Positions 9,013 through 23,057 of a stretch of 64,000 nucleotides of DNA are shown in pieces. This DNA is from an uncultured Halanaerobiaceae bacterium. GTDB lineage: Bacteria; Bacillota; Halanaerobiia; Halanaerobiales; Halarsenatibacteraceae. Each line of letters starts with the position of its first letter. Position 1 is the stretch's first letter. Position numbers and translations under genes: made by a program. The notes beneath the pieces were generated by a model. That model ran no database searches and was not told the DNA's origin. It saw only the letters and a program-made list of their open reading frames with translations. The stretch covers positions 1,647-65,646 of the forward strand of contig CAYXAK010000001.1 in the NCBI GenBank assembly GCA_964462585.1, in the 5' to 3' direction.

Positions 9013-9041
9013 TTGACATGAAAATTGTTGTCTGTTAAACT
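9013..9041 (+). promoter_or_regulatory. SigA-type promoter of the rnf-like operon
   Basis: TTGACA(9013-9018)-17 nt-TAAACT(9036-9041) with TG extended -10; implies a leader of about 150 nt. Confidence 0.65.
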
Positions 9042-9201
9042 GATTTCTAGAAGTTTATATTTAGTGTATGAGATTAATTTTACCAGGCTGTGTTACAAAT
9101 ATAACGATATATGGACGCGGTGGTTTTTAGCCTGTTTTTTTGTCTGAAAAGTTAATTATAAGAATCACATTATATTTATTTTTCGGAGGTGTGGCAATAA
9201 A

Positions 9202-10515
9202 GTGGAAGATCTGAAAAAGTTTCCTATTGGAGGAGTGCATCTGCCTGAAGAAAAACACCTGACAACGGATTCCCCCATAGAAGATATGGCACTTCCAGCT
9301 CAGGTAACAATTCCTCTGCAGATGCATATTGGTGCCCCCTGTAATCCCGTTGTATCTGAGGGAGATGAGGTCAAAAGGGGTCAGCTGATTGCCAGCAATG
9401 AAGAGGCCCTCTCTGCCCGAATTCATGCTAGTATATCGGGAGTTTATCGGGGAATAGTTTCGCGTCCTGGACCTGATGGTTCCATGATAGATTGCATGTT
9501 GATCGAGAACGAAGGCCAGGATAATGAGGAGAAACTTCTGGAGCCTTCTTACGCAAAAGCGGAACTCGATGCGGATAAGATTGTTGAGCGGGTGAGAGAA
9601 GCCGGGATTGTAGGGCTGGGAGGAGCCTGTTTTCCCACACATGTGAAGCTATCTCCTCCGGAGGATAAACCGATTGATACGGTAATTATTAACGGAGCAG
9701 AATGTGAGCCCTATCTGACGGTCGATGACAGACTGATGCGGGAGAAGACAAAACTGCTCTTTGAAGGTCTTAATATGATCATGAAAGCAAGTGGAGCAGA
9801 AAAAGGCATTGTATCGAGTGAGATAAACAAGCCCAAAGCCGTGGAGGCGATCAGAGAGGAAGCTGAAAACTGGGATAACTTAAGCGGTGTACCTCTCGAT
9901 ACAAGATACCCCCACGGTGCAGAAAAACATCTGATAAAAGCTGTTTTGAACAGGGAGGTTCCCAGACGTGGTCTGCCGATGGATGTAGGTGTAATTGTGA
10001 ACAACGTTCAGACCACCACCAAAATTGCTGAAGCACTTTACAGGGGACGAACCCTAATAGATAGAGTTATAACAGTCAGTGGAAGAGCTTTAAAAGAGCA
10101 GAAAAATCTGCTGGTACCGATAGGAGCCTCTATAGGTGATGCTATTGACTTCTGCGGCGGTATAGACCGGGAGGAGTATTATACAATTATGGGAGGTCCT
10201 ATGACAGGCAAAAGAGTTGATAATCTGGACGTCCCGGTGGGAAAAGGTACTTCGGGTGTGGTGCTGCTCTCGGAAGAAGAATACAGTGATCCCGAAACGA
10301 GGGTCTGCATAAAATGCGGCAAGTGCGTTGATGTCTGCCCCATGTATCTGCCGCCCAACAGGATTACAGCTTTTGTAAACAATGATATGTATGAAGAAGC
10401 TGAGATTGCGGGTTTGGATGACTGTATTGAATGCGGAGCCTGTGCTTTTGTCTGTCCATCTAAAAGACCACTCCTGCGCTGGATCCAGCAGGGGAAGGCT
10501 GCTGCAGATAGTTAA
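9202..10515 (+). CDS. rnfC: Rnf complex subunit C (NADH/FMN-binding, two [4Fe-4S])
   Basis: HIGAP, GIVGLGGACFPTHVK, NGAECEPY, GGPMTG, CIKCGKCVDVCP and CIECGACAFVCP. Confidence 0.95.
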   Translation: MEDLKKFPIGGVHLPEEKHLTTDSPIEDMALPAQVTIPLQMHIGAPCNPVVSEGDEVKRGQLIASNEEALSARIHASISGVYRGIVSRPGPDGSMIDCMLIENEGQDNEEKLLEPSYAKAELDADKIVERVREAGIVGLGGACFPTHVKLSPPEDKPIDTVIINGAECEPYLTVDDRLMREKTKLLFEGLNMIMKASGAEKGIVSSEINKPKAVEAIREEAENWDNLSGVPLDTRYPHGAEKHLIKAVLNREVPRRGLPMDVGVIVNNVQTTTKIAEALYRGRTLIDRVITVSGRALKEQKNLLVPIGASIGDAIDFCGGIDREEYYTIMGGPMTGKRVDNLDVPVGKGTSGVVLLSEEEYSDPETRVCIKCGKCVDVCPMYLPPNRITAFVNNDMYEEAEIAGLDDCIECGACAFVCPSKRPLLRWIQQGKAAADS

Positions 10516-10579
10516 ACATTTTTTAAAATAAGAATTATACACTGGTATCTTTAGGTTAAAATTTCGGAGGTGAAATGTT

Positions 10580-13500
10580 TTGTCAAACTCTTTTGAGATG
10601 TCAGGTCCACACATTAGACAGCTCGATTCTATAGAAAAAACGATGTGGAATGTGGTCCTGGCATTAATTCCAGCTATATTTATGGCTGTGTATCTATTTG
10701 GCACTTATGCACTATATCTCGTTGCTGCCACCATGATCACCTGTATGCTGGTAGAGATTCCTTTCAATAAAGATTTGAGCGGTCGACAGAGATTTTTGGG
10801 GGATGGAAGTGCTGCAGTTACAGGTGTTATACTGGGACTTTCGCTTCCTCCCATAGCACCCTGGTGGGTGCCGATAGTTGGTGGAGCAGCTGCTATTCTC
10901 GTGGGCAAACAGCTATTTGGCGGTCTGGGGAATAATATCTTCAATCCCGCCCTGGTGGGAAGAGCAATACTTTCTATCTCCTGGACTGTTTACATGACAC
11001 AGTGGGTTACCCCTTTTGACGGTGTCAGCACCAGCACCCCTCTGGCCACACCCGGAGCTGATACTCCTCTCTGGGATCTATTTGTCGGTACAGTTCCCGG
11101 CAGCATAGGTGAAACATCTGCTCTGGCGTTATTGATAGGGGCAGCATATCTATATTATAAAGGCTATCTTGACCTGAGAATTTCTATACCCTATGTGGTC
11201 GCTGCCGCAGTGACTGCCTTTGTTCTTGGAATTAATCCTATATATTCTATACTGGCCGGTTCACTCATAATTGGTGCTTTCTTCATTGCCACTGATATGG
11301 TTTCATCTCCGGCCACGAGAAGCGGCAGGATCGTTTATGGAATTGGCTGTGGAGTTTTGACCATAGCTATCCGTTCCTTTACCGGGTTTCCGGAAGGTGT
11401 CACATTTGCCATACTGCTGATGAACGGTTTTTCTCATCTTTTTGATACACTTTTTGAGGGATATATATTTGGCCAGATCCATATGAAGAAGCGAAGAATT
11501 ATGCAGGTAGGTGTGGTTCTGCTCTCCACACTCATCTTTGCCGCTGTCGCTTTCGGAGGATTTCAGTTGACTGAAAGAGAATTCCTCCAGCCCCAGCATC
11601 GTGTGTTTAATCAGCACATGCATGAGTTTTTCCCCCATGCTGATGGATTTAACATGCTGGAAGAACTGCATCGTGATAGAATGCTCGCCGAGGTGAGACA
11701 GGGGGACCGCAGAGTTGGTTTTCTGGCCTATACCCATAGAATCGGTTATGATGGCAAGATAGAGAATATGGTTGCCATAAATCCTGATGGTGAAGTTATC
11801 GGCAGCAAAATAATAGATCACAATGAAAGCGCGACACTGGGAGCTCAGATCGAAAGGGAGGATTTCCTGGCCCAGTTTGTCGGCCTGAGATACGAGGATA
11901 TGAATCCTTCCTTTGGAGCAGGGGATTTTAATCTGGATACAATTACAAATGCCACGCTCTCTTCTATAGCCGTAGCTCAGACTGTTGAAACTTCACTTGA
12001 GCTTGTCAACAGACAGCTTCACGGCAACCGCTTTGATTACTTTAATCTGCCCACCGGAAGATATCGAGGGTCCGGTACGGGCTGGGGCGGCGAGATGGAA
12101 GCAGAGGTGGTCGTTGAAGATGGATTTTTGATGGATATAAGAGTTTTGAAACATAATGAGACTCCTCACAAGGCCAGAAGCGCCTTTGAAAGGCTGAAAT
12201 CCAAGATCATCAGCGCTCAGAGCACTGATGTAGATGTGATATCAGGATCTACACTGAGCAGCAACGGTCTGCTGGAAGCCATTGATGATGCTCTTGCTTC
12301 CAGAAGGCTGGAAATTATGGAGACCGATTTCTCACAGCTTGAAGATGGCCGATATACGGGAACAGCTCCCGGATATATAGGAGATATTGAAGTCGAAATT
12401 GAAATTCTCGACGGTGAGATTGTAGATATCGATGTGCTCCGTCACCGGGAGACCACCTATCTTGCTGAGCCCGCTCTGGAAAGATTGAAAAACCGGGTTA
12501 TCTCAGAACAGAGCGTTGATGTTGAAATGGTATCTGGCGCTACACTGACCAGCCGGGGTTTTCTGGCAGCTGTTTCTGATGCCGGTACTGTAGAAGAACC
12601 ATTTGCAGTTCCTGATGAAGATGGAACCTATACAGGTACAGCTGAGGGCTATCAGGGTGATATTGTACTCGATGTGGTCGTAGAAAATGGCGAAATCGTT
12701 GATATAATTGTAATTGATCATGCTGAGACAGATGATATTGCTGAACCGGCTTTCGAAGATCTGAAAGAACGCGTGCTGGAACAGCAATCTATTGATGTTG
12801 ATATAGTAACAGGTGCTACCTTCTCCAGTGAAGGCTATCTGCAGGCGATTGAAAATGCTTTTGCAGAGGTGACACCAGAATATGAAGATGGCGTCTATAC
12901 TGCCACTGGCCAGGGATATCAGAGTGATATCGAAATCGAAGTTACCATAAGTGAAGGTGAGATATCCTCAATAGAAGTTCTCTCACATGGGGAAACAGCT
13001 GAAATTGCCGATCCAGCTTTCGAGGATCTGGAAGAAGCCGTAATTGAAGCTCAAAGTGCTGATGTTGATACCGTAAGCGGTGCGACCGGCACAAGTGAAG
13101 GCTATCTGGAAGCACTGGCCCAGATACTGGATGAAGCCAGTCCTGATGAACCCGATGAAATAGAAGAAGTTGAAGAAGAACTGCAGGATGGAGAATATAT
13201 CGGTACAGGAGAAGGATACAATGATGATATAGAGGTCGAGATAACGGTTGAAGATGGAGAAATTGTAGCTGTGGAGGTGCTCAGTCACGCCGAAACCGAA
13301 GATATAGCAGAGCCTGCCTTTGAAGACCTGGAGCAGGCCGTGATAGACTCCCAGAGCACAGATGTTGATACAGTATCCGGTGCCACAGGTTCAAGTGAGG
13401 GCTATCTGGCAGCAGTGGATGAAGCACTGGACAAAGCGGGAGATGTTCCCGAAGATCCTGAAGAGCCGGAGGAAACTGAATTAATCTATGAAGATGGAAC

Positions 13501-16141
13501 CTATGTCGGCCTCGGTGAAGGATATAACGATGATATTGAGATTGAACTGACCGTCGAGGAAGGTGGAATCACAGCAATAGAGGTGCTCAGTCACGAAGAG
13601 ACCGAAGATATAGCCGAACCTGCTTTTGAAGATCTGGAGCAGGCTGTGATAGATTCCCAGAGCACAGATGTTGATACAGTATCCGGTGCCACAGGTTCCA
13701 GCGAAGGCTATCTGGCTGCAGTAGATGAAGCACTGGCCGCAGCCGAAACTACTGAAGATATTGAAGAGGAGTTTCCTGAAATTCCAGAACCTGAAATCGA
13801 ACTTGCTGATGGTAGATTTTCAGGTGAAGCAGCTGGATATAATGAAGAAATAGTAGTTGAGGTTGTTATTGAAAATGGTCTGATTGTGGGCATTGATGTA
13901 ATAGAACATGATGAAACCCCTGATATTGCCGAACCTGCCTTTGAAGAGATGAAAGATCGGGTTGTTGCTGCTCAGAACACCGAAGTTGACACAGTTACAG
14001 AAGCTACTGGTTCCAGTCAGGGTTTTTTACGGGCAGTGAATGTGGCTATAACCAGCTCAAATGAACAGGCTGAAAAAGAGCCAGCAGCAATTTACGAATC
14101 TGGAACTTACACGGCCTCTGCAGAAGGTTACAATGATATGATTGAGGTAGAGATTACTGTGGATGAACAGGAAATTACCTCAATAGAAGTCCTAAGCCAT
14201 GAGGATACTGAAGATATAGCCGAGCCTGCCTTCGAGGACCTGGAGCAGTCTGTGATAGATTCTCAGAGTACAGATGTAGATACGATATCCGGTGCCACAG
14301 GTTCCAGTGAGGGTTATCTGGCCGCTGTGGAGGCTGCTTTAAAGGAAGCTAAAATTGATGAAGATGTCGATGATGAGCCTGAAGCAGAAACCTTCACAGG
14401 CACTGGTGAAGGCTATAATGATGATATTGAGGTGCAGATTTCAGTCGAAGACGGAGATATCGTCGGGATAGAAGTCCTCAGCCATGGCGATACTGAAGAT
14501 ATAGCCGAGCCTGCCTTCGAGGACCTGGAGCAGGCTGTGATTGAAGCTCAGAGTACAGATGTTGACACAGTCTCAGGCGCTACGGCCTCAAGTGAGGGTT
14601 ATCTGGCCGCTGTGGAAGCTGCCATGGAAACAGCCGGCCTCATTGAAGAAGAACCCGAAGAAGAGCCAGCAGCAATTTACAAACCTGGAACTTACACAGC
14701 CTCTGCAGAAGGTTACAATGATATGATCAAGGTAGAGATTACTGTGGATGGACAGGAAATTACCGCAATAGAAGTATTAAGCCATGAGGAGACAGATAAT
14801 ATAGCAGAATCTGCCTTCGAGGATCTGGAGCAGGCTGTGATAGATTCTCAGAGCATCGATGTAGATACGATATCCGGTGCCACAGGTACCAGTGAGGGTT
14901 ATCTGGCCGCTGTGGAGGTTGCTTTAGAGGAAGCTAAAATTGATGAAGATATAAATGATGAGCTCGAAGAACCTTTAGAGGAGCCTGAAGCAGAAACCTT
15001 CACAGGTACTGGTGAAGGCTATAGAGGTGAAATTGAGATCGAAATAACTTTTGCAGATGATGAGATCACAGCAATAGAGGTTTTAAGCCACGAGGATTCA
15101 GAGGACATAGCTGAACCAGCCTTTTCAGACCTGGAAGAAGCAATAATAGAAATCCAGAGCACAGACGTCGATACAATTTCGGGAGCTACCGGATCATCTC
15201 AGGGATATCTTGAAGCAGCAAGAGATGCAATTGAGAAAGCCGGTCTGGAAGAGAAATTTATTTCAGCACCTGAAGATGAAGATGAAATTGAATTATTTGA
15301 TGGCAAATACAGAGGTGTTGGCGAGGGTTACAGTGGTGATGTAGAGGTAGAAATTACGGTGGAAGATAGCACCATAACCTCTATAGAGGTTTTGGATCAT
15401 GAAGATTCTGAAGATATAGCGGAACCTGCTTTTCAGGATCTAAAACAGGCTGTACTAGAAGTTCAAAACAGTAATGTAGATACTGTTTCCGGTGCTACCG
15501 GTTCCAGTGAGGGTTATCTTGAGGCCGTGGAAGAGGCAGTGGAAAAAGCTGGACAGCATCGGGATGAATCTGATGTTTATCTGGAGGATGGTTTATTTAC
15601 AGGTACAGGCCAGGGATATAGCGGTGCTATAGAGCTGGAGTTAACTGTTGAAGCCAGTGAGATCAGAGCAATAAAAGTTCTCAGCCATGAAGATTCAGAG
15701 GATATAGCTGAACCTGCTTTTGCAGACCTGGAGCAGGCTATTATTGAAGCCCAGAGATCGAATGTTGAAGCTGTGTCTGGAGCCACAGGTTCTTCACGGG
15801 GATATCTGGAAGCTGTATATGAAGCTTTATCGAAATCTGAAGTGGAAATACCTGAAGAAGAACCGGAGGTAAGTTTGGTTGACGGAACATTTGCCGGCGT
15901 AGGTGAAGGATACAGCGATGATATTGAAATAGAGCTGGTAATAACAGAAGGCAAAATCTCCTCAATAGAAGTTTTGAAACACGAAGATTCTCCCGATATA
16001 GCTGAACCTGCTTTTGAAGATTTAACAGAAAATATTATCCGTCATCAATCTTCAGATGTGGATGTTATTACAGGTGCAACAGGTTCCAGCCAGGGATTTT
16101 TGGCAGCAGTACAAAATGCTATAGAGAAAGCTGAAAACTAA
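10580..16141 (+). CDS. RnfD-RnfG fusion extended by 14 tandem extracytoplasmic FMN-binding domains (15 FMN-binding domains in total)
   Basis: Residues 1-~300 are RnfD (KQLFGGLGNNIFNPALVGR, DGVSTSTPL, GSIGETS, GAFFIATD, EGVTFAILLMN). Then a TM helix and RnfG-type domain (GYDGKI...HNESATLGA...DTITNATLSS). Then 14 repeats of G.Y.G.G.GY...I.V.....G.I..I.VL.H.ET..IAEPAF..L...V...QS.DVD.VSGAT.SS.GYL.A. Confidence 0.92.
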   Translation: MSNSFEMSGPHIRQLDSIEKTMWNVVLALIPAIFMAVYLFGTYALYLVAATMITCMLVEIPFNKDLSGRQRFLGDGSAAVTGVILGLSLPPIAPWWVPIVGGAAAILVGKQLFGGLGNNIFNPALVGRAILSISWTVYMTQWVTPFDGVSTSTPLATPGADTPLWDLFVGTVPGSIGETSALALLIGAAYLYYKGYLDLRISIPYVVAAAVTAFVLGINPIYSILAGSLIIGAFFIATDMVSSPATRSGRIVYGIGCGVLTIAIRSFTGFPEGVTFAILLMNGFSHLFDTLFEGYIFGQIHMKKRRIMQVGVVLLSTLIFAAVAFGGFQLTEREFLQPQHRVFNQHMHEFFPHADGFNMLEELHRDRMLAEVRQGDRRVGFLAYTHRIGYDGKIENMVAINPDGEVIGSKIIDHNESATLGAQIEREDFLAQFVGLRYEDMNPSFGAGDFNLDTITNATLSSIAVAQTVETSLELVNRQLHGNRFDYFNLPTGRYRGSGTGWGGEMEAEVVVEDGFLMDIRVLKHNETPHKARSAFERLKSKIISAQSTDVDVISGSTLSSNGLLEAIDDALASRRLEIMETDFSQLEDGRYTGTAPGYIGDIEVEIEILDGEIVDIDVLRHRETTYLAEPALERLKNRVISEQSVDVEMVSGATLTSRGFLAAVSDAGTVEEPFAVPDEDGTYTGTAEGYQGDIVLDVVVENGEIVDIIVIDHAETDDIAEPAFEDLKERVLEQQSIDVDIVTGATFSSEGYLQAIENAFAEVTPEYEDGVYTATGQGYQSDIEIEVTISEGEISSIEVLSHGETAEIADPAFEDLEEAVIEAQSADVDTVSGATGTSEGYLEALAQILDEASPDEPDEIEEVEEELQDGEYIGTGEGYNDDIEVEITVEDGEIVAVEVLSHAETEDIAEPAFEDLEQAVIDSQSTDVDTVSGATGSSEGYLAAVDEALDKAGDVPEDPEEPEETELIYEDGTYVGLGEGYNDDIEIELTVEEGGITAIEVLSHEETEDIAEPAFEDLEQAVIDSQSTDVDTVSGATGSSEGYLAAVDEALAAAETTEDIEEEFPEIPEPEIELADGRFSGEAAGYNEEIVVEVVIENGLIVGIDVIEHDETPDIAEPAFEEMKDRVVAAQNTEVDTVTEATGSSQGFLRAVNVAITSSNEQAEKEPAAIYESGTYTASAEGYNDMIEVEITVDEQEITSIEVLSHEDTEDIAEPAFEDLEQSVIDSQSTDVDTISGATGSSEGYLAAVEAALKEAKIDEDVDDEPEAETFTGTGEGYNDDIEVQISVEDGDIVGIEVLSHGDTEDIAEPAFEDLEQAVIEAQSTDVDTVSGATASSEGYLAAVEAAMETAGLIEEEPEEEPAAIYKPGTYTASAEGYNDMIKVEITVDGQEITAIEVLSHEETDNIAESAFEDLEQAVIDSQSIDVDTISGATGTSEGYLAAVEVALEEAKIDEDINDELEEPLEEPEAETFTGTGEGYRGEIEIEITFADDEITAIEVLSHEDSEDIAEPAFSDLEEAIIEIQSTDVDTISGATGSSQGYLEAARDAIEKAGLEEKFISAPEDEDEIELFDGKYRGVGEGYSGDVEVEITVEDSTITSIEVLDHEDSEDIAEPAFQDLKQAVLEVQNSNVDTVSGATGSSEGYLEAVEEAVEKAGQHRDESDVYLEDGLFTGTGQGYSGAIELELTVEASEIRAIKVLSHEDSEDIAEPAFADLEQAIIEAQRSNVEAVSGATGSSRGYLEAVYEALSKSEVEIPEEEPEVSLVDGTFAGVGEGYSDDIEIELVITEGKISSIEVLKHEDSPDIAEPAFEDLTENIIRHQSSDVDVITGATGSSQGFLAAVQNAIEKAEN
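12050..16138 (+). repeat. Intragenic tandem array of 14 FMN-binding domain repeats (about 250-320 nt each)
   Basis: Recurrent nucleotide motifs such as GAACCTGC(C/T)TT(T/C)GAAGA and TCCGGTGCCACAGGT; near-identical blocks begin at 14078 and 14663. Confidence 0.9.
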
Positions 16142-16170
16142 CAGGTTATGAGAGAGGGTGATGAAAAAAC

Positions 16171-16764
16171 ATGGAAAAATTCAATAACATGTTCGAACAG
16201 GTAGTCCTGCTGGGAATTATCCCTATACTGGGAGGCAGCAGAAATCTAACCACAGCTGTTATTACAACTGTAATACTGGTTTTAACTGCCATTATCTTAA
16301 GATTGGTATCCAGACTTTTAAATCAGGATAGTCTGGCAGGAGCGCACTGGGTTTTATTCCTGGCAGTAGGAATATCTCTATCATATGTTGCATATCTTTT
16401 TTCCGCTTTTCTGTATCCTCAGGTCTATCAGCATTCGGGTATATATTTGCTTTTGATAGGAGTTTCTCCCCTGACCTATTATGGCTGTAAGCTAAATGTT
16501 TCTTTTTCTGATCTCTGGAAGAGATTTAATATCTTCTTTTTGACGATTATTGTTGTGAGTTTTTTCAGGGAACTCATCGGCTTTGGTTCAATACTGGGCA
16601 GGTCATTTTTTGAAGTTGGTTTTGCGCCGCTCAGTTCTTTTCAGGGGGCACCTGGAGCTTTTATAATCCTGGGCACCATCTGGTTGATTTTTCGCTGGAT
16701 AATATCTGCCAATTTGCTGGATGAAGGCATGCTAAAGATAGAGGAGGGGACTGAAATTGAGTGA
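16171..16764 (+). CDS. Divergent RnfE-like membrane subunit lacking the conserved Fe-S cysteines
   Basis: Operon position, several TM helices, FRELIGFGSILG and APGAFIILG motifs; LGIIP replaces LGxCP and IGVSP replaces IVVNC. Confidence 0.8.
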   Translation: MEKFNNMFEQVVLLGIIPILGGSRNLTTAVITTVILVLTAIILRLVSRLLNQDSLAGAHWVLFLAVGISLSYVAYLFSAFLYPQVYQHSGIYLLLIGVSPLTYYGCKLNVSFSDLWKRFNIFFLTIIVVSFFRELIGFGSILGRSFFEVGFAPLSSFQGAPGAFIILGTIWLIFRWIISANLLDEGMLKIEEGTEIE

Positions 16765-17311
16765 ATTAATGGGTATCTTCCTGGAAAATATCGCATCACA
16801 GAATATGGTTTTGATTTATTTTCTCGGAGTGCTTATATCTATCGCCGAGACCGGAGGTGTGAGAACATCACTTCTTAAAGGAGTTAAATATTCCCTGGGC
16901 TTATTCTTTGCTGTAATAATAGGTGTAATTGTGGCCGATTCCCTTCCTCTGGCTCTGGAATTCATACATCCCTGGATTTTTCTTCTGACAGCCCTGGGAG
17001 CAGTTTTTATCTTTCAACTCATGGGGGATCTAAAGGGCGATTTTTATGGAATACCCAGACTTTTTCTGCCCCTGATACCTATTGTGGGCCTGCAATATCT
17101 GCTGGTGGATAGAGGACTCAGTTTTGATGTGATGGTAATTTCTGCTCTGGCCAATTCTATAGGGTTTTATATGGGCTTTATCCTTATAGGGACCATAAAG
17201 GAACAGATAATGATCTCGGAAACTGATGATATATATAAATTTGCCCCGGCACTCTTAATCAGCCTGGGTGTTTTGAGCATGGCAGTTAAGGGGTTTGCCT
17301 TTCTGTACTGA
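16757..17311 (+). CDS. Divergent RnfA-like membrane subunit with no cysteines
   Basis: Overlaps the rnfE-like stop; NMVLIYFLG, FLPLI, IGFYMGFILIGTIKEQI, APALLISLGVLSMAVKGF resemble RnfA; the translation contains no Cys. Confidence 0.78.
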   Translation: MSELMGIFLENIASQNMVLIYFLGVLISIAETGGVRTSLLKGVKYSLGLFFAVIIGVIVADSLPLALEFIHPWIFLLTALGAVFIFQLMGDLKGDFYGIPRLFLPLIPIVGLQYLLVDRGLSFDVMVISALANSIGFYMGFILIGTIKEQIMISETDDIYKFAPALLISLGVLSMAVKGFAFLY

Positions 17312-17391: not shown

Positions 17392-17420
17392 TTGTAGAAG
17401 ATAAATTAATGTGATATAGT
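17392..17420 (+). promoter_or_regulatory. Putative SigA-type promoter of the exbB-exbD-tonB operon
   Basis: TTGTAG(17392-17397)-17 nt-TATAGT(17415-17420) with TG extended -10. Confidence 0.55.
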
Positions 17421-17470: not shown

Positions 17471-18121
17471 TTGCAGCAAATCTGGAATATTATTTCACTT
17501 GGCGGTCCTACGGCAATTCCACTGTTGATTGCATCTATTTTCAGTCTGGCGGTAATTATTGAGAAAACGATATTCTTTGCCCGCAACAAGCAGAATAATC
17601 GAAATCTGATCAAGAAGGTTGAAATGGTGCTGGATGAAGACGACACTATGTCGGCCTACAGTCAATTAAAGGGTGAAAAAGGTCCAAATGTAAAGCTCCT
17701 GTCTACGGCTCTTTCAAATCTGGATGAAGACCCGGAGAGGATTAGAGAAGCACTTCAGGTCACAGGGAAAAATGAAATCAGGAAGATGGAAAAACATCTG
17801 CAAATTCTGGATGTTATTGCCATGATTGCTCCACTGCTCGGTCTTTTAGGAACAGTGCTGGGAATTATTAGCAGCTTCAATATCCTGGGAGCAACTGCCG
17901 GTGTTGGAGATCCCACTCAGATAAGTGCTGGTATTGCAGCAGCTTTGATAAGCACTGCTATTGGCCTTATCATAGCTATTCCCACAGCTATATTTTATTC
18001 CTATTTTTCCAATATAGTGGAGAGAAGAGCGCATCAGTTAAACGAGAGTATCGTGGAGATTATGGATATTGTTAATGGCAGAGGTGAAGAGTATGAAGAA
18101 AATGTTAAACACATCTCTTGA
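17471..18121 (+). CDS. exbB: MotA/TolQ/ExbB proton channel protein
   Basis: APLLGLLGTVLGII, ISAGIAAALISTAIGLIIAIP. Confidence 0.9.
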   Translation: MQQIWNIISLGGPTAIPLLIASIFSLAVIIEKTIFFARNKQNNRNLIKKVEMVLDEDDTMSAYSQLKGEKGPNVKLLSTALSNLDEDPERIREALQVTGKNEIRKMEKHLQILDVIAMIAPLLGLLGTVLGIISSFNILGATAGVGDPTQISAGIAAALISTAIGLIIAIPTAIFYSYFSNIVERRAHQLNESIVEIMDIVNGRGEEYEENVKHIS

Positions 18122-18503
18122 CAAAAAGAGCAAGATTAACATACTGCCACTTGTCGATGTTATCTTTTTCCTGCTCGTATTTTTTATGCTATTCACCTCT
18201 TTTCGTGCTGCTCCTGAAGGCCTGGATTTACAGCTTCCTGCTGCAGAGACGGCTACTGAACAGCAGGAAGAGAATGTTGTGATCAATATAGATGAGAATG
18301 GGGAATATTCTATGGATGGGGATATACTTTCACTGGATGAGATCAGAGTTGAGGTGCGGAATATCGATCAGGAGCAGGAAAATCTCGTGGTAATTATCAA
18401 TGCTGATCAGAATGCTCGCTATCAGCATGTTGTTCAGGTCATGGACGGTTTACGACAGGAGGGAATCTATAACTTAGCTTTAGCAGCTGAGAGAGAATCT
18501 TAA
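18093..18503 (+). CDS. exbD: ExbD/TolR family protein
   Basis: INILPLVDVIFFLLVFFM (conserved Asp), VIINADQNARYQHVVQVMD. Confidence 0.92.
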   Translation: MKKMLNTSLDKKSKINILPLVDVIFFLLVFFMLFTSFRAAPEGLDLQLPAAETATEQQEENVVINIDENGEYSMDGDILSLDEIRVEVRNIDQEQENLVVIINADQNARYQHVVQVMDGLRQEGIYNLALAAERES

Positions 18504-18518
18504 TGCGGAGAGATTGGC

Positions 18519-19406
18519 ATGAATAATAATCAAAAGGATAGATTAATATTTTATATCATAGTCTCCTTGGTTATACACCTGGGTTTATTTTATTTTGTGC
18601 CCTGGGGAGGTTTTGCCACTGGATTAAATCCAGAAGGGAGAACTATGGCTGATTTTGAGTTCATTCAGGTCGTGGATTTTGAGGAACTGCCTGAGGAAGG
18701 TATAGAAGTCGAGGAGGAGACCGTAGAACACGAGCCTGCAGAACCCGAAGAAGAGGAGATAGTTGAGGATACAGAGCCTGATCCTGAACCCGAGCCTGAA
18801 ACTGAAGTTGATGAACCAGAACCTGAACCGGAAGAAGAAGTTGTAGAGGAAGTAGAGGAAGAAGAAATAGAAGAGGAAGTGGATGAAGAGCCTGAAACTG
18901 AGGAAGAAGTTATAACAGCGGAAGAATCTGAATCTGAAATAGAAGCTCCTGAAGAGATTGAAGAGGAAGAAGCGGAAGAAACTTCACCGGAAGAAGAAAG
19001 GGAGGCTGCAAGAGCTGAAGAAGAAGCCGAAGAGATAGAGGAGGCTGAGGATGAAGCTCAGGCTGCTGCTGGTGACGAAGCAGAGGAAGCCCCTCCTTCT
19101 GCCGGAGAGATGGTTTTGAGTTCACAGCTTCCTGTTTACCCTAAATATTCAGTTGGTCCAGAAGAGACGGGAGAAGTTGTAATATCTGCCCGTGTAGATG
19201 TAAATGGCGAGATCATGGAAGTGAATGTTATTGATAGTTCCGGTGTAGAAGCCATGGACAGAAATGCACAGAATACGATTGAACATGGCTGGGATTTCAA
19301 TTCCTATTCAAGCCCCTATACAATGGAGATTATGGTCAGTTATAATCTCGATGAGAGGGGAGATCCTGTGATCGATTATGAACTGATACAGCTTGTACTT
19401 GATTAA
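18519..19406 (+). CDS. TonB/TolA-like energy transducer with a long Glu/Pro-rich linker
   Basis: TM anchor with SxxxH (SLVIH), about 140-aa E/P-rich linker, TonB C-terminal-like domain PVYP...GEV...VDVNG...SSG..AMDRNA...WDF. Confidence 0.82.
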   Translation: MNNNQKDRLIFYIIVSLVIHLGLFYFVPWGGFATGLNPEGRTMADFEFIQVVDFEELPEEGIEVEEETVEHEPAEPEEEEIVEDTEPDPEPEPETEVDEPEPEPEEEVVEEVEEEEIEEEVDEEPETEEEVITAEESESEIEAPEEIEEEEAEETSPEEEREAARAEEEAEEIEEAEDEAQAAAGDEAEEAPPSAGEMVLSSQLPVYPKYSVGPEETGEVVISARVDVNGEIMEVNVIDSSGVEAMDRNAQNTIEHGWDFNSYSSPYTMEIMVSYNLDERGDPVIDYELIQLVLD

Positions 19407-19428
19407 TTTTGAAAGAGGTGGTCGGTTA

Positions 19429-21447
19429 ATGTCTGTCAAGAGAAATAATGTAATTTCTGCGGTTATTTTTCCCTTTTTTATTTTAATAACGGTTTTCTTA
19501 TTTTCCTTCGGAGCAGCTGGCTCTGAACTGCAAGAGACTATAGATGATCATGGCAATCTGAGGCTTTTAAATGAGTATATAGCTATCGTTGTCAATACAG
19601 AAGATAATGCCAGAAGCAGATTTGCTGTTGAGACAACAGGTGGTGATCCGGGCAGAGAAGAGGATGAAAATATGCCCCTTATCTACGGCCGACCAATCCC
19701 CTGGACCTCCTATACTACTTTCAGAATTGATGGAGAAAATTACGTCTTTGGTGGCGAAACTGATAGAAGAGCAGGTGGAGGGGCGAGTTATGGTGAAGAG
19801 CTTAGAGAACCGGAGGTCCAGGATGGAACTATAGTCTCAGAATATGAACTCAACGAGCTGCAAATAGAACAGAATTTAGAAATTGTACAGAGCATCACCA
19901 CTGGACTGTATGATACAGCCAGAATTGAATACATTGTAACTAATACCGGTGATGAGCCTAAAGAGACCGGCACCAGAATAATGCTTGATACCATGCTGGG
20001 GGAGGTAGATGGGTCTCCTTTTAGAGTGGAAGAAGAAGCAATCACTACAGATACCAGGATGACCAGGGATGAACTGCCAAATTTTTACCAGTCTTTTGAT
20101 AAGCTCACCGATCCCCAGATTACATCACAGGGTGGTTTTATAGGTGAAAATATCCATACTCCCGATAGAGTATATATGTCAAACTGGGGAAGTCTGGCAG
20201 ATGGTCCCTGGGATTTTAATTTTGAACCCGGCAGAGAATTTTTAAGAGAAGGTGAGTTTGAAACTGACAGCGCTATCGCCCTTTACTGGGATCCTGATAC
20301 CATAGAGCCTGGTGAAACTGTAACTTATGCCACAACATACGGTCTCGGTGGTATATCTATGGTGCCGGGAATGCTTTCACTCGGTATTAGTGCTCCCACT
20401 GAATTTTCTTTTTCACCTACAACCCCGGAACTGCCCGTGGTGGCTTATATTGAAAACACCACGGAAATCACCGCGGAGAATGTCACTGTTTCCATAGATC
20501 TACCGGATTACCTGGAAGCCGAAGAGCCGGCACGTGAAATCGGTAATCTGGAGGCAGGGGAAGTAGCTCAGATCAACTATTATGCCAGAGCTTTAACCGA
20601 AGATCTGCCCGGCAGAACAACCTTTGAAATCAGCGCTGAAGCTGACAATACCGATACCAATATTGCGGACAGGCAGATAGATCTCATTGCACCCGCTCAG
20701 CTGGAAACCGATCTTTCCCTGGTGGAAGAGCTTTCTTTTGAAGATGGCAGGCTATCACCGCTTCCATTTCAAATGAGACTGGAAATTGAAAATGTGGGTG
20801 AAAGACCATTTGAGGATTTTGAGAGTGAATTGATTATTCCACCTGGAATCGATCTGGCCAGCTACGAAAGGGCGGAAAAGATGAGCTCCAGAATTGGACC
20901 CGGGGAGAGTATTAATATTGATTGGAGGCTTATTCCCCATGATGTAGAGGGAACTTTCCCTTTTGCCGTACAGATAAGCGGCCGTGGAGGTTATTCTGAA
21001 ACGAAGAGGGAATCGATCGAGATTCCTCCTACCTCTCCTTCGATATATTATGAAGTTAAACGTTCCAGTTCTGAGAGCAATATACTGACAGTAGATGTAA
21101 AGGCTGCTAATCTGGATGATAGCATTGAAAGAGTCGAGTTTAAATTCGGCTACAATGAAGAGATTCTAAACCATGTATTTTCCAGCAGAGGAACTTATTT
21201 TGTCAGAGATGAGAGGTTGATGGCCTGGAATGGACCTCAGGAGATAACTGATGAAACTATCAGTTTTGAGGAACAGCTACCTGATGGCCTTAACCAGGGT
21301 GGACTGGCCAGAATGAGGTTTAAAATAGAGGTAGATGGAACTGAAGAGATGGAAGAACTGGAGAATTTGGTTGATGAATTCGAAATACTTGAAGCCAGTA
21401 TATTTGATGAAGACGGAACAGAAGATGATGCTTTACTGATCAACTAA
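19429..21447 (+). CDS. Large exported protein with an uncharacterised N-terminal domain, Ig/CARDB-like repeats and a C-terminal cohesin-like domain
   Basis: Signal peptide; TTGGDP...PWTSYTT and RIMLDTMLG..DGSPF motifs; two ..IEN..G... beta-sandwich-like units; C-terminal TVDV...FKFGYNEEIL...GGLARMRFK pattern. Confidence 0.6.
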   Translation: MSVKRNNVISAVIFPFFILITVFLFSFGAAGSELQETIDDHGNLRLLNEYIAIVVNTEDNARSRFAVETTGGDPGREEDENMPLIYGRPIPWTSYTTFRIDGENYVFGGETDRRAGGGASYGEELREPEVQDGTIVSEYELNELQIEQNLEIVQSITTGLYDTARIEYIVTNTGDEPKETGTRIMLDTMLGEVDGSPFRVEEEAITTDTRMTRDELPNFYQSFDKLTDPQITSQGGFIGENIHTPDRVYMSNWGSLADGPWDFNFEPGREFLREGEFETDSAIALYWDPDTIEPGETVTYATTYGLGGISMVPGMLSLGISAPTEFSFSPTTPELPVVAYIENTTEITAENVTVSIDLPDYLEAEEPAREIGNLEAGEVAQINYYARALTEDLPGRTTFEISAEADNTDTNIADRQIDLIAPAQLETDLSLVEELSFEDGRLSPLPFQMRLEIENVGERPFEDFESELIIPPGIDLASYERAEKMSSRIGPGESINIDWRLIPHDVEGTFPFAVQISGRGGYSETKRESIEIPPTSPSIYYEVKRSSSESNILTVDVKAANLDDSIERVEFKFGYNEEILNHVFSSRGTYFVRDERLMAWNGPQEITDETISFEEQLPDGLNQGGLARMRFKIEVDGTEEMEELENLVDEFEILEASIFDEDGTEDDALLIN

Positions 21448-21500
21448 AAATAAAGCAGAGCAAATTTAATTAATAATTTATTTAGGGGGATGGATGACAA

Positions 21501-22271
21501 GTGAAGAGATTTCTATTGATATTTACACTGGTAGCCTTTGTCATTACCACAAGTTTTGCACCGGCAGGTGCTCTTGAGATCGAGGATGTACCCGAGGACC
21601 ACTGGGCTTATGAGAGTGTATCTAAGCTGGTGGATAGAGGTTACATGACTCTATATGATGATGATACATTTGCCGGAACTAACAGGGTTTCACGCTTTGA
21701 GCTGGCAGAAACTCTGGCCAATATGCTCGAAGATCTGGAAGAGGGTCAGCTGGAGATGGAAGAAGAAGATCTTGACCTGCTGCGGGAACTGTCAGTAGAA
21801 TTTAGAGATGAACTGGTAGAACTGGCCGGTGACATGGATTTATTCCAGGAACGCATCGAAGAACTGGAAGAAGAAAGCCTGGTTTACGGTGAAGATATGG
21901 CAGAGATGTATGAGGATATGTCAGATATGGAAAGAGAGATAAATGAAATAATCGATGAGATTGCGGAAATGAGAGCACAATCTGAAAGACTGGATGAATT
22001 TGAAGAGAGAATTGAGGTTCTGCAGGAAGATATGGATGTTTCTGAGGAAAGACTGGATGAAATGGATGACAGATTAGAAGAAGATCCGGAAATAGAGGAT
22101 ATTGAGATGTTTGACGAACGAATGGACGATTTTGATGATAGGCTCTCAATGCTGGAGGAACAGCATGCAGAAAATCAGGAGGAGATCGAGGAACTGAACA
22201 GACAGAGAAGCAATCATCTTCTCTATATAGGGGCCATCGGTCTCATATCGATGATATCACTTATACAATAA
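21501..22271 (+). CDS. SLH-domain, coiled-coil, C-terminally anchored envelope protein (Omp-alpha-like architecture)
   Basis: Signal peptide, SLH motif DVPEDHWAYESV..LVDRGYM..Y.D.TF.G...VSRFELA, long acidic heptad region, hydrophobic C-terminus. Confidence 0.8.
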   Translation: MKRFLLIFTLVAFVITTSFAPAGALEIEDVPEDHWAYESVSKLVDRGYMTLYDDDTFAGTNRVSRFELAETLANMLEDLEEGQLEMEEEDLDLLRELSVEFRDELVELAGDMDLFQERIEELEEESLVYGEDMAEMYEDMSDMEREINEIIDEIAEMRAQSERLDEFEERIEVLQEDMDVSEERLDEMDDRLEEDPEIEDIEMFDERMDDFDDRLSMLEEQHAENQEEIEELNRQRSNHLLYIGAIGLISMISLIQ

Positions 22272-22304
22272 GAGATTGAGATGAATATGGAGGGGATAAC
22301 CGTT

Positions 22305-23057
22305 ATGAAGCTCAATGGTGTATCAGGTTTAAAAATCATAATATGTCTGCTTTCCTTTCTATTAATTGTCAGTTTAATCGGTTACTCCCCTCAGCATTTC
22401 TCCATTTCTTTAAATAATTCTGCTCAGGCCTCCAGTTTTGAAGGGGAAGATGTCTTAAAGGGGGTCGGTATAGCAGTGGCAGTTATAGCAGCTGCACAGC
22501 TAATTTTAGGCGAAAGACCGGGTGATGAAGCAGAGGTACCGGAAGATAGCCTGAAAGTAGAAGATGAGAGCACCGAAAGATTTGAAGAGGCCCTTTCCGG
22601 AGATCGATTGAAGGAAAAAGAAAATATTTTTGAGCTAATACAGGATGACAAAAGAAAAGAAAATATGAAGGAAATCATAGACAGAAAGAACATAGATGAA
22701 GCTGAAATAGATATGCTTGCCCATTTGATACACGGAGAAGCCAGGGGCGAACCTTTCGAAGGCCAGGTTGCTGTTGCCGGGGTTGTATTGAACAGGAAGG
22801 ACTCATCTCAATTTCCGAATTCTATAACCGGAGTTATCTATCAGGCTGAACAGTTTACGGCTCTTGAGGATGGCCAGTTTTATAAAACTCCTGATAGAAC
22901 TTCTTATGATGCTGCTTTTAAAGCTCTGGAAGGAGAAGATCCCAGTAAGGGAGCTCATTACTTTTTCAATCCATTGACTGCAGATAATCTGGACTGGTTT
23001 CGAACACTGGAGGAGGTAAATAGGATAGGGAATCATATATTTGCCGTAAAACCATGA
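22305..23057 (+). CDS. Cell wall hydrolase, SleB/CwlJ (Hydrolase_2) family
   Basis: LAHLIHGEARGEPFEGQVAVAGVVLNR, FPNSITGVIYQ, DPSKGAHYFFNP, IGNHIF. Confidence 0.9.
   Translation: MKLNGVSGLKIIICLLSFLLIVSLIGYSPQHFSISLNNSAQASSFEGEDVLKGVGIAVAVIAAAQLILGERPGDEAEVPEDSLKVEDESTERFEEALSGDRLKEKENIFELIQDDKRKENMKEIIDRKNIDEAEIDMLAHLIHGEARGEPFEGQVAVAGVVLNRKDSSQFPNSITGVIYQAEQFTALEDGQFYKTPDRTSYDAAFKALEGEDPSKGAHYFFNPLTADNLDWFRTLEEVNRIGNHIFAVKP

Follow-up and report, generated by a model that had tools for sequence, protein, structure and literature searches.

The stretch of DNA analysed here (the window; 64,000 nucleotides from an uncultured Halanaerobiaceae bacterium, positions 1,647 to 65,646 of contig CAYXAK010000001.1 in assembly GCA_964462585.1) was found to encode, at 9202-17311 on the plus strand, a real and conserved, apparently undescribed variant of the Rnf complex. 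In this operon rnfB is missing, the homologues of RnfE and RnfA (here RnfE* and RnfA*) lack the cysteines of the membrane [2Fe-2S] cluster, and RnfD is fused to RnfG and to 14 further domains that bind flavin mononucleotide (FMN). The cofactor path that is left very probably joins NAD(H) to flavins outside the membrane, as a predicted one-way conduit between NAD(H) and the periplasm, because the crossing through RnfA/E is gone and the crossing through RnfD is intact. The core of this idea, with the ferredoxin half dismantled, the NAD half intact and exchange with the outside through flavins, was already contained in the first-pass annotation, and it has strong support from residue conservation, by the joint loss of the cysteines and rnfB, by purifying selection and by the presence of ApbE.

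The operon opens with rnfC (9202-10515, plus strand as all genes of the operon; 437 aa), which scored 498.6 bits against TIGR01945 (cut-off 246), followed by the rnfD-rnfG-(FMN-binding)14 fusion gene (10580-16141; 1853 aa, with PF03116 at aa 8-295 and 15 PF04205 stretches), the rnfE-like gene (16171-16764) and the rnfA-like gene (16757-17311), with intergenic gaps of 64 bp and 29 bp and then an 8-bp overlap. The intact RnfC and the fusion with 14 extra domains, both described in the first pass, were recovered as open reading frames (ORFs) with exactly these ends. RnfC retains the FMN/NAD(H) domain, the two [4Fe-4S] motifs and all eight Fe-S cysteines, and 102 of 122 canonical columns are kept in RnfC and 77 of 95 in RnfD. 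The RnfD domain (10601-11473, plus strand, aa 8-298) carries the FMN acceptor Thr153 and the riboflavin residues Asn122 and Asp239, and its model matched 9eri_D with an E-value of 1e-18 in a fold search. The same cofactor residues recur among relatives: the riboflavin Asn/Asp and the FMN Thr of RnfD in 15/15 and the checked RnfC sites in 14/14 of this order's fusion-type sequences, while every aligned Cys-less sequence keeps the RnfD riboflavin Asn/Asp and FMN Thr, the Gly-rich loop of RnfC and its four checked cluster cysteines.

Behind RnfD follow the RnfG anchor helix (aa 300-330) and the RnfG FMN domain (together 11477-12010, plus strand; acceptor Thr459 in TNAT), and then the 14 further acidic FMN-binding domains (12056-16135, plus strand), each with an acceptor Thr and with a Thr-to-Thr spacing of 89-105 aa. 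The linkers between domains are 5-21 aa long and rich in acidic residues and proline (25% D+E and 4% K+R in the outer part). The protein ends with its last domain, with no C-terminal anchor, and PF00175, an NAD-binding domain, was absent from the fusion in the Pfam search. Since more than one extracytosolic FMN-binding domain carries an acceptor Thr (12 of the 15 flavinylation motifs match [ST]GA[ST]) and ApbE is encoded in the genome, the fusion is predicted to be a multi-flavinylated protein. A single-chain model of it reached a predicted local distance difference test score (pLDDT) of 70 and a predicted template modelling score (pTM) of 0.54, confirming the D and G folds and nothing further. 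Assembly artefact was rejected as the source of the array: no two of the 14 extra domains are more than 86% (aa) or 91% (nt) alike, the arrays of relatives carry 9-15 motifs, and contigs from two sequencing runs, from which the window may itself derive, agree with it letter for letter along the array, with no one contig spanning it. One contig of run X10, otherwise identical, skips 285 bases, i.e. one whole FMN repeat, at 14203-14489 of the window, possibly as copy-number variation within the population. Domain numbers vary freely among carriers, with about 3-4 motifs in most and 9-15 in the window's own family, in counts that miss degenerate motifs.

RnfE* and RnfA* scored 32 and 28 bits, respectively, against PF02508, both far under the TIGR01948 and TIGR01943 cut-offs, and keep 17/61 and 19/61 canonical columns; family profiles matched the RnfE and RnfA chains of solved structures with E-values of 5e-11 and 2e-12. 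As first noticed from the letters alone, they are homologues without the Cys motifs: all four cluster cysteines are replaced, by I and P in RnfE* and by L and I in RnfA*, so that RnfA* has no Cys at all and RnfE* a single one, at residue 106, off the cluster positions. Across this lineage the four cysteines occur in 0/32 RnfE and 0/29 RnfA sequences, against 84/84 and 86/86 canonical ones. Alignment with the Acetobacterium subunits, a comparison proposed in the first pass, revealed that the Na+-path residues are absent too. The window has H and K in place of R67 and E115 (RnfE) and Q, L, P and L in place of E88, T110, T111 and N112 (RnfA), in the A. woodii numbering of 10.1101/2024.06.21.599731 and in an alignment that is gappy around E115 and T110-N112; the gate residue Leu103 is retained. 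None of these path residues is kept in the fusion-type or RnfG-less lineage of this order, against 84/84 and 86/86 canonical sequences, and some of them persist in a second bacterial class and in the C3-type operons described below. With the path residues also lost, the earlier proposal that RnfA/E were kept as ion-path subunits is disfavoured.

No His or Cys that might act as a replacement ligand is shared by over half of the RnfE* and RnfA* sequences, and ligation of heme or another metal was rejected on that ground. Between three species pairs for each gene, the nonsynonymous and synonymous rates were dN 0.22-0.26 and dS 1.9-3.3 for RnfE*, and dN 0.19-0.20 and dS 2.1 to saturated for RnfA*. 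The resulting dN/dS of about 0.1 denotes purifying selection and, together with the open reading frames, led to rejection of a pseudogene. Because they are conserved without ligands, RnfE* and RnfA* would serve as a scaffold that carries no cofactor. That the operon is a decaying duplicate, or else a paralogue that borrows the canonical RnfB and works as ordinary Rnf, is very improbable: a canonical RnfB does exist in the genome and RnfE*/RnfA* are strongly diverged, yet the selection extends across species with saturated synonymous sites, the same layout is found in two classes, and RnfB would have no electron recipient where the four cysteines are gone and no conserved His or Cys substitutes for them. 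Judged from its sequence, the operon is a conserved paralogue, not decay.

A profile search with RnfE* recovered 32 such operons in 29 of the 102 genomes of the class, all within the window's order, comprising 27 of the fusion type (several of them cut by contig ends, so that the fusion gene is not visible in all) and five without RnfG. The RnfG-less operons (L084-L088) have the order C-D-E*-A* and leave the RnfG anchor helix on RnfD; in the four loci mapped, mnmH (tRNA 2-selenouridine synthase) directly precedes them. Cultured carriers, as judged by protein names, are Halonatronomonas betaini, Natronospora cellulosivora and Halanaerobium saccharolyticum. Through a sample of 401 genomes of the phylum, the arrangement C / D-G-(FMN)n / E* / A* without B was also found in a second class, at 24 loci: four at first and then 20/20 picked from a search of 95 genomes. 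The two fusion lineages formed one clade in the last RnfC+RnfD tree (99/96) and in an earlier one (85/71). A single origin of all Cys-less types was not firmly supported, since the E+A tree that joined them (98/99) included the Cys columns and long branches, and the C+D trees gave 62/91 or, in the last one, no resolution.

Among 149 loci at which E and A were both aligned, rnfB was present at 0 of 63 loci lacking all four cysteines (three of which have less than 600 bp of room for it) and at 78 of 86 with all four. Twelve locus ids, mostly duplicates, had been dropped before this count (one of them, L127, is Cys-intact, carries rnfB and duplicates no other locus), and L213 and L214, partly Cys-less, were excluded by a length filter. 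Because the loci are related to one another and were selected for similarity, the co-loss may reflect one or two events. L213 and L214 represent another rnfB-less rnfCDGEA with cysteines of A/E partly lost, probably a separate loss, as their RnfC+RnfD cluster with a canonical copy (97/99). A mirror variant occurs at L205 and L206, namely rnfCDGEA without rnfB in which the A/E cysteines are intact and RnfC lacks the Gly-rich FMN/NAD motif, and L092-L094 are second Cys-intact rnfCDGEA copies with no adjoining rnfB.

The genome of the window (G000), 92% complete, holds three rnf loci. A genome search for rnfB, a second rnf operon and a flavin transferase, as suggested in the first pass, located ApbE on contig C33 and a canonical rnfCDGEAB with all cysteines on C22, which includes the sole rnfB found; no orphan rnfB was detected in this 92% complete assembly by TIGR01944 or by a local profile, and no start-bearing ORF resembling an rnfB remnant was seen between rnfA* and the following exbB. 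Rex is encoded on C27. Among the 29 carriers of the class, 26 likewise hold a Cys-intact rnfA with rnfB; no canonical rnf match above threshold was obtained in G002, G048 and G049 (89, 90 and 69% complete). The third locus of G000 (C3:27573-32585, L024) is a second Cys-less, rnfB-less operon in the order D-G-E*-A*-C, preceded by a gene for a 290-aa secreted-looking protein without Pfam match and by a Rex-like box; this C3 type was found in 10/102 genomes of the class.

An electron in canonical Rnf makes two passages across the membrane, outward by way of the [2Fe-2S] cluster of RnfA/E and back by way of RnfD (PMC12174285), and removal of the four cysteines in A. woodii abolished two irons and all ferredoxin:NAD+ activity (10.1101/2024.06.21.599731). 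In the window operon electrons would pass from NADH to RnfC (FMN and two [4Fe-4S] clusters), to RnfD (riboflavin and covalent FMN), across the membrane to the FMN of the fused RnfG, and on to up to 14 more FMNs attached by ApbE to domains on flexible acidic linkers. The final acceptor would be one that enters the periplasm, such as polysulfide or sulfur, soluble quinones or flavins, chelated metals or traces of O2, or else a periplasmic enzyme. RnfE* and RnfA*, having no cluster to gate the RnfA/E switch, would not pump Na+ by that route. An outward electron would spend membrane potential and an inward one would build it, by physical reasoning, so that the two directions differ energetically; the benefit of outward flow would accordingly be the regeneration of NAD+, under control by Rex, with the canonical Rnf alongside conserving energy. 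NADH has a potential of -320 mV. A three-FMN protein with flexible linkers, which reacts with O2, was reported at -184 mV (PMC10339131), and flow from NADH into the flavin chain would thus be downhill. Sulfur reduction has been reported for H. saccharolyticum subsp. saccharolyticum (PMC10536098), and P0083, which has the RnfG-less form, bears the name of H. saccharolyticum; the two together amount to a single anecdote.

Rex lets go of its targets at high NADH. Upstream of rnfC, a sigma-70-like promoter (TTGACA, 17 nt, TG-n-TAAACT; 9013-9041, plus strand) matched 10/12 positions in the scan, and about 50 bp past its -10 box lies a Rex-like site with the core TGTTA-N6-TAAC (9090-9107, plus strand), a candidate Rex operator. 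TTGACAT and TGTTA are invariant, and the Rex-like site is conserved, in 4/4 aligned upstream regions of the family. The site fits the consensus TTGTTANNNNNNTAACNN with one mismatch (PMC5886521) and is the sole match in the window, with one match also found in 13 of 100 shuffles. Its core occurs upstream of just 11/2007 predicted genes in G000, two of which are the first genes at both Cys-less rnf loci. A looser pattern was present in 9/13 fusion-type upstream regions of this order (shuffle mean 3.4) and in 11/16 of the second class (1.5), and was not enriched in canonical upstream regions (12/38; shuffle mean 9.4). Because the Rex-like operator is conserved at the promoter, the outward direction is favoured, and the half-Rnf appears, by a modest preference, to act as a one-way NADH:periplasmic-flavin oxidoreductase.

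Several observations weigh against this outward conduit or parts of it. The looser Rex pattern was picked after the sites had been seen; a clear Rex-like box is confined to the window's own family, the other fusion-type upstream regions having 1-3 mismatches; and 7/38 canonical upstream regions also have a site with one mismatch. RnfE* and RnfA* diverge several-fold faster than canonical E and A (dN 0.19-0.26 vs 0.04-0.08, the latter from one canonical pair). Three of the 15 flavinylation motifs (TNAT, SGST and TEAT) and the STST of RnfD deviate from [ST]GA[ST]. The RnfG-less form has no outer FMN domain whatever, so that the flavin chain is not essential in every lineage, and neither an acceptor gene nor an outer-membrane part was present in any operon examined. 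Since nothing in the operon crosses the outer membrane, "periplasmic" is safer than the "extracellular" of the first-pass annotation, which was too strong for a chain that ends without anchor or porin partner and for a lineage with five operons devoid of the RnfG domain. Finally, formate dehydrogenase FdhAB stands without a cytochrome b neighbour in 8/8 carrier genomes of the order, G000 included, and in G515 and G517 rnfC-rnfD lie right behind a Tat-type fdhE-fdhA-fdhB (G516 is cut by a contig end).

The last two observations speak for the opposite direction, in which a periplasmic dehydrogenase, namely the Tat-exported selenocysteine FdhAB, would reduce the chain, and RnfD and RnfC would then reduce NAD+ in a loop that builds membrane potential without pumping. 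In G000 a Tat-signal selenocysteine FdhA and FdhB are encoded at C31:18394-22218 (L266) with no adjacent cytochrome b subunit. The fdh-linked operons (L288:2275-9471 in G515, L289:1216-8348 in G517 and L285 in G516) contain no rnfG, E, A or B and retain the RnfD FMN Thr, and the fdhA of the L288/L289 type has a Tat signal and an in-frame stop at the Sec position; their existence shows that a periplasmic donor enzyme can be connected to such a C/D half. The mobA and tatC genes downstream of rnfA* in genus g3 fit such a loop as well, as does the lack of multiheme cytochromes (0/2151 predicted ORFs carry more than one CxxCH). Its distribution, however, led to rejection of periplasmic FdhAB as the general partner: FdhA was found in only 8/72 genomes of the order and 7/95 of the other class, and in 0/27 genomes of family f102, many of which have the fusion operon. 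Moreover, the fdh-linked RnfCD clusters with the C3-type operon (98/98) and not with that of the window, and Rex-type control suits a sink for NADH. Inward flow is rather unlikely.

A store of electrons, or a scavenger of oxygen, would be a sub-case of outward flow rather than a different wiring: NADH would charge up to 15 flavins, and O2 or intermittent acceptors would discharge them. SaFMN3 in its reduced state reacts with O2, and all of its flavins have the same potential and impose no directionality (PMC10339131); the freely variable domain number and the contig lacking one repeat are also compatible with storage. The conserved form without any outer FMN domain argues against it, no gene for peroxide defence turned up in the neighbourhoods read, and storage is improbable as the chief function.

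Slightly less probable still is that energy continues to be conserved, through coupling to an Mrp-type antiporter or through ion transport by RnfD, with RnfE*/RnfA* as a docking face. An mnhE-F-G-(MbhD,E)-B-C-D-D/A set does lie behind rnfA* in 8/32 operons of the lineage, at 14-24 bp in six of them; the loci with Mrp/Mbh-type sets are L063-L065, L067, L068, L071, L072 and L083, and also L219 and L220. Pumping by RnfD/NqrB is among the debated models (PMC12174285). A linked mrp set is nevertheless absent from G000 and most carriers, and the two mrp sets of G000 are just 26-48% identical to the linked ones, by which relocation of the linked set within this genome was not supported either. In G152 and G191, mrp also follows canonical rnfB-moaC, so that the link predates the cysteine loss, and RnfD mutants of A. 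woodii had no growth effect (10.1101/2024.06.21.599731).

A wider, tentative reading is a heme-free periplasmic flavin bus, in which half-Rnf conduits would link NAD(H) and formate pools to shared covalent-FMN carriers. The conduits would be the window operon, the second Cys-less operon, two RnfD-formate dehydrogenase fusions and an orphan RnfD; the carriers would be the 15-domain chain and two secreted two-FMN proteins, together with the anchorless periplasmic formate dehydrogenase. In the two fusions (C77:4527-7907, L267; C41:8007-11720, L268) an RnfD/NqrB-like membrane domain (PF03116, without the FMN Thr motif) is joined to an FdhF-type molybdopterin formate dehydrogenase, possibly forming a formate-linked one-way conduit. 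The orphan RnfD (C71:4585-5451, 288 aa) has the FMN Thr motif and no rnf gene nearby. The secreted-looking proteins at C58:4777-5493 (L026) and C59:7363-8007 (L027) carry two FMN-binding domains each; L026 starts 5 bp downstream of a NuoE/NuoF/FdhF gene set, and a MenA-like prenyltransferase is encoded on the same contig. Wood-Ljungdahl genes were recognisable by eye on C35 and C23. If the bus were real, its role would resemble that of the cytochrome c3 pool in sulfate reducers, with the crossing direction alone deciding whether energy is conserved or spent.

Downstream of the operon, exbB begins 159 bp past the end of rnfA*. Of the earlier statement that a new promoter and exbB follow in place of rnfB, the gene content stands and the promoter is only partly supported: the scan gave no site in the gap between the two genes, where an extended -10-like TGATATAGT was found by eye at 17412-17420. 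The neighbourhood comparison across relatives that had been proposed showed the rnfB-less layout to recur and exbB not to be a conserved neighbour; exbB-exbD-tonB was rejected as part of the system because the mrp set or mobA-tatC intervenes in relatives. The block exbB-exbD-tonB, then a 684-aa secreted-looking protein and an S-layer homology (SLH) protein (17471-23057 of the window), is conserved across the family. Nine of 11 sequencing runs holding the stretch, which may be its source, are soda-lake metagenomes; no RNA run is among the holders listed, which bears on expression neither way.

The operon represents a natural dissection of Rnf, in which two bacterial classes have kept the NAD arm and lost the ferredoxin arm together with the membrane cluster and the Na+ path. 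Because evolution has dissected Rnf in this way, the dispute over ion pumping by RnfD or by RnfA/E becomes testable with a native complex. Multi-flavinylated proteins, whose role was called enigmatic in PMC12052999, would gain a defined electron source, and the arrangement points to a way in which fermenters and acetogens of salt and soda habitats, poor in cytochromes, swap electrons with the outside. In annotation pipelines such genes are labelled as hypothetical or as regular Rnf subunits. No account of an Rnf lacking both RnfB and the cluster cysteines was found in the open-access literature searched; the large Supplementary File 1 of PMC8238504 may list such clusters, and three small supplements of that paper have no Halanaerobi- or Limnochord- entry.

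Compared with the RnfCDGEAB complexes of A. woodii (9ERI), C. tetanomorphum (7ZC6) and A. vinelandii (8AHX), the window operon has homologous C, D, G, E and A in the order CDGEA and shares the cofactor sites of RnfC and RnfD and the anchor helix and FMN Thr of RnfG (here fused to RnfD, in TNAT). Unlike them, it lacks RnfB, the [2Fe-2S] ligands of RnfA/E and the Na+-path residues, its D and G are fused and extended by 14 FMN domains, and it coexists with a canonical copy in 26/29 carriers. By sequence it is thus derived from Rnf, yet without RnfB, the cluster cysteines and the Na+ path it does not pass as an Rnf. With flavin-based extracellular electron transfer in Listeria (PplA/FmnB), and with the Desulfovibrio and Methanosarcina Rnf that work with multiheme cytochromes, it shares a link from a cytoplasmic electron pool to the envelope through flavinylated or multi-cofactor carriers; unlike them, it has neither an Ndh2/quinone step nor a cytochrome.

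Of the systems described so far, the nearest are multi-flavinylated RnfG and the two-subunit NQR/RNF-like complexes. Multi-flavinylated RnfG has been described in RnfB-defined clusters (Meheust et al. 2021, Fig. 6H), where the maximum in any protein of the survey was 13 sites. The tandem FMN-binding extension and the proposed branch to extracytosolic acceptors are common to both, but there the branch leaves an intact Rnf, whereas in the window operon, with 15 sites, it would be the only path left. Two-subunit NQR/RNF-like systems have been proposed as one-way conduits from NAD(P)H to an extracytosolic FMN domain (Meheust et al. 2021, PMC8238504, 10.1101/2021.01.07.425746; Huang et al. 2024, PMC10979944), and the single membrane crossing through an RnfD/NqrB-like subunit is shared, here as predicted from the residues. 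In those systems RnfD is fused to an NqrF-like PF00175 domain and has no flavinylation site; the window operon works with RnfC, has retained the FMN Thr of RnfD and degenerate A/E, and has no PF00175. Nor is it an Na+-NQR, as RnfC is intact, NqrF is missing from the operon and the cluster cysteines are lost. A further parallel is the model in which NQR derived from a duplicated rnfCDGEA that had lost rnfB (Reyes-Prieto et al. 2014, PMC4014512), a starting point shared by the window operon: NQR retained the cluster of D/E, gave up the sites of RnfC and took on NqrF, while the lineage of the window kept the opposite half.

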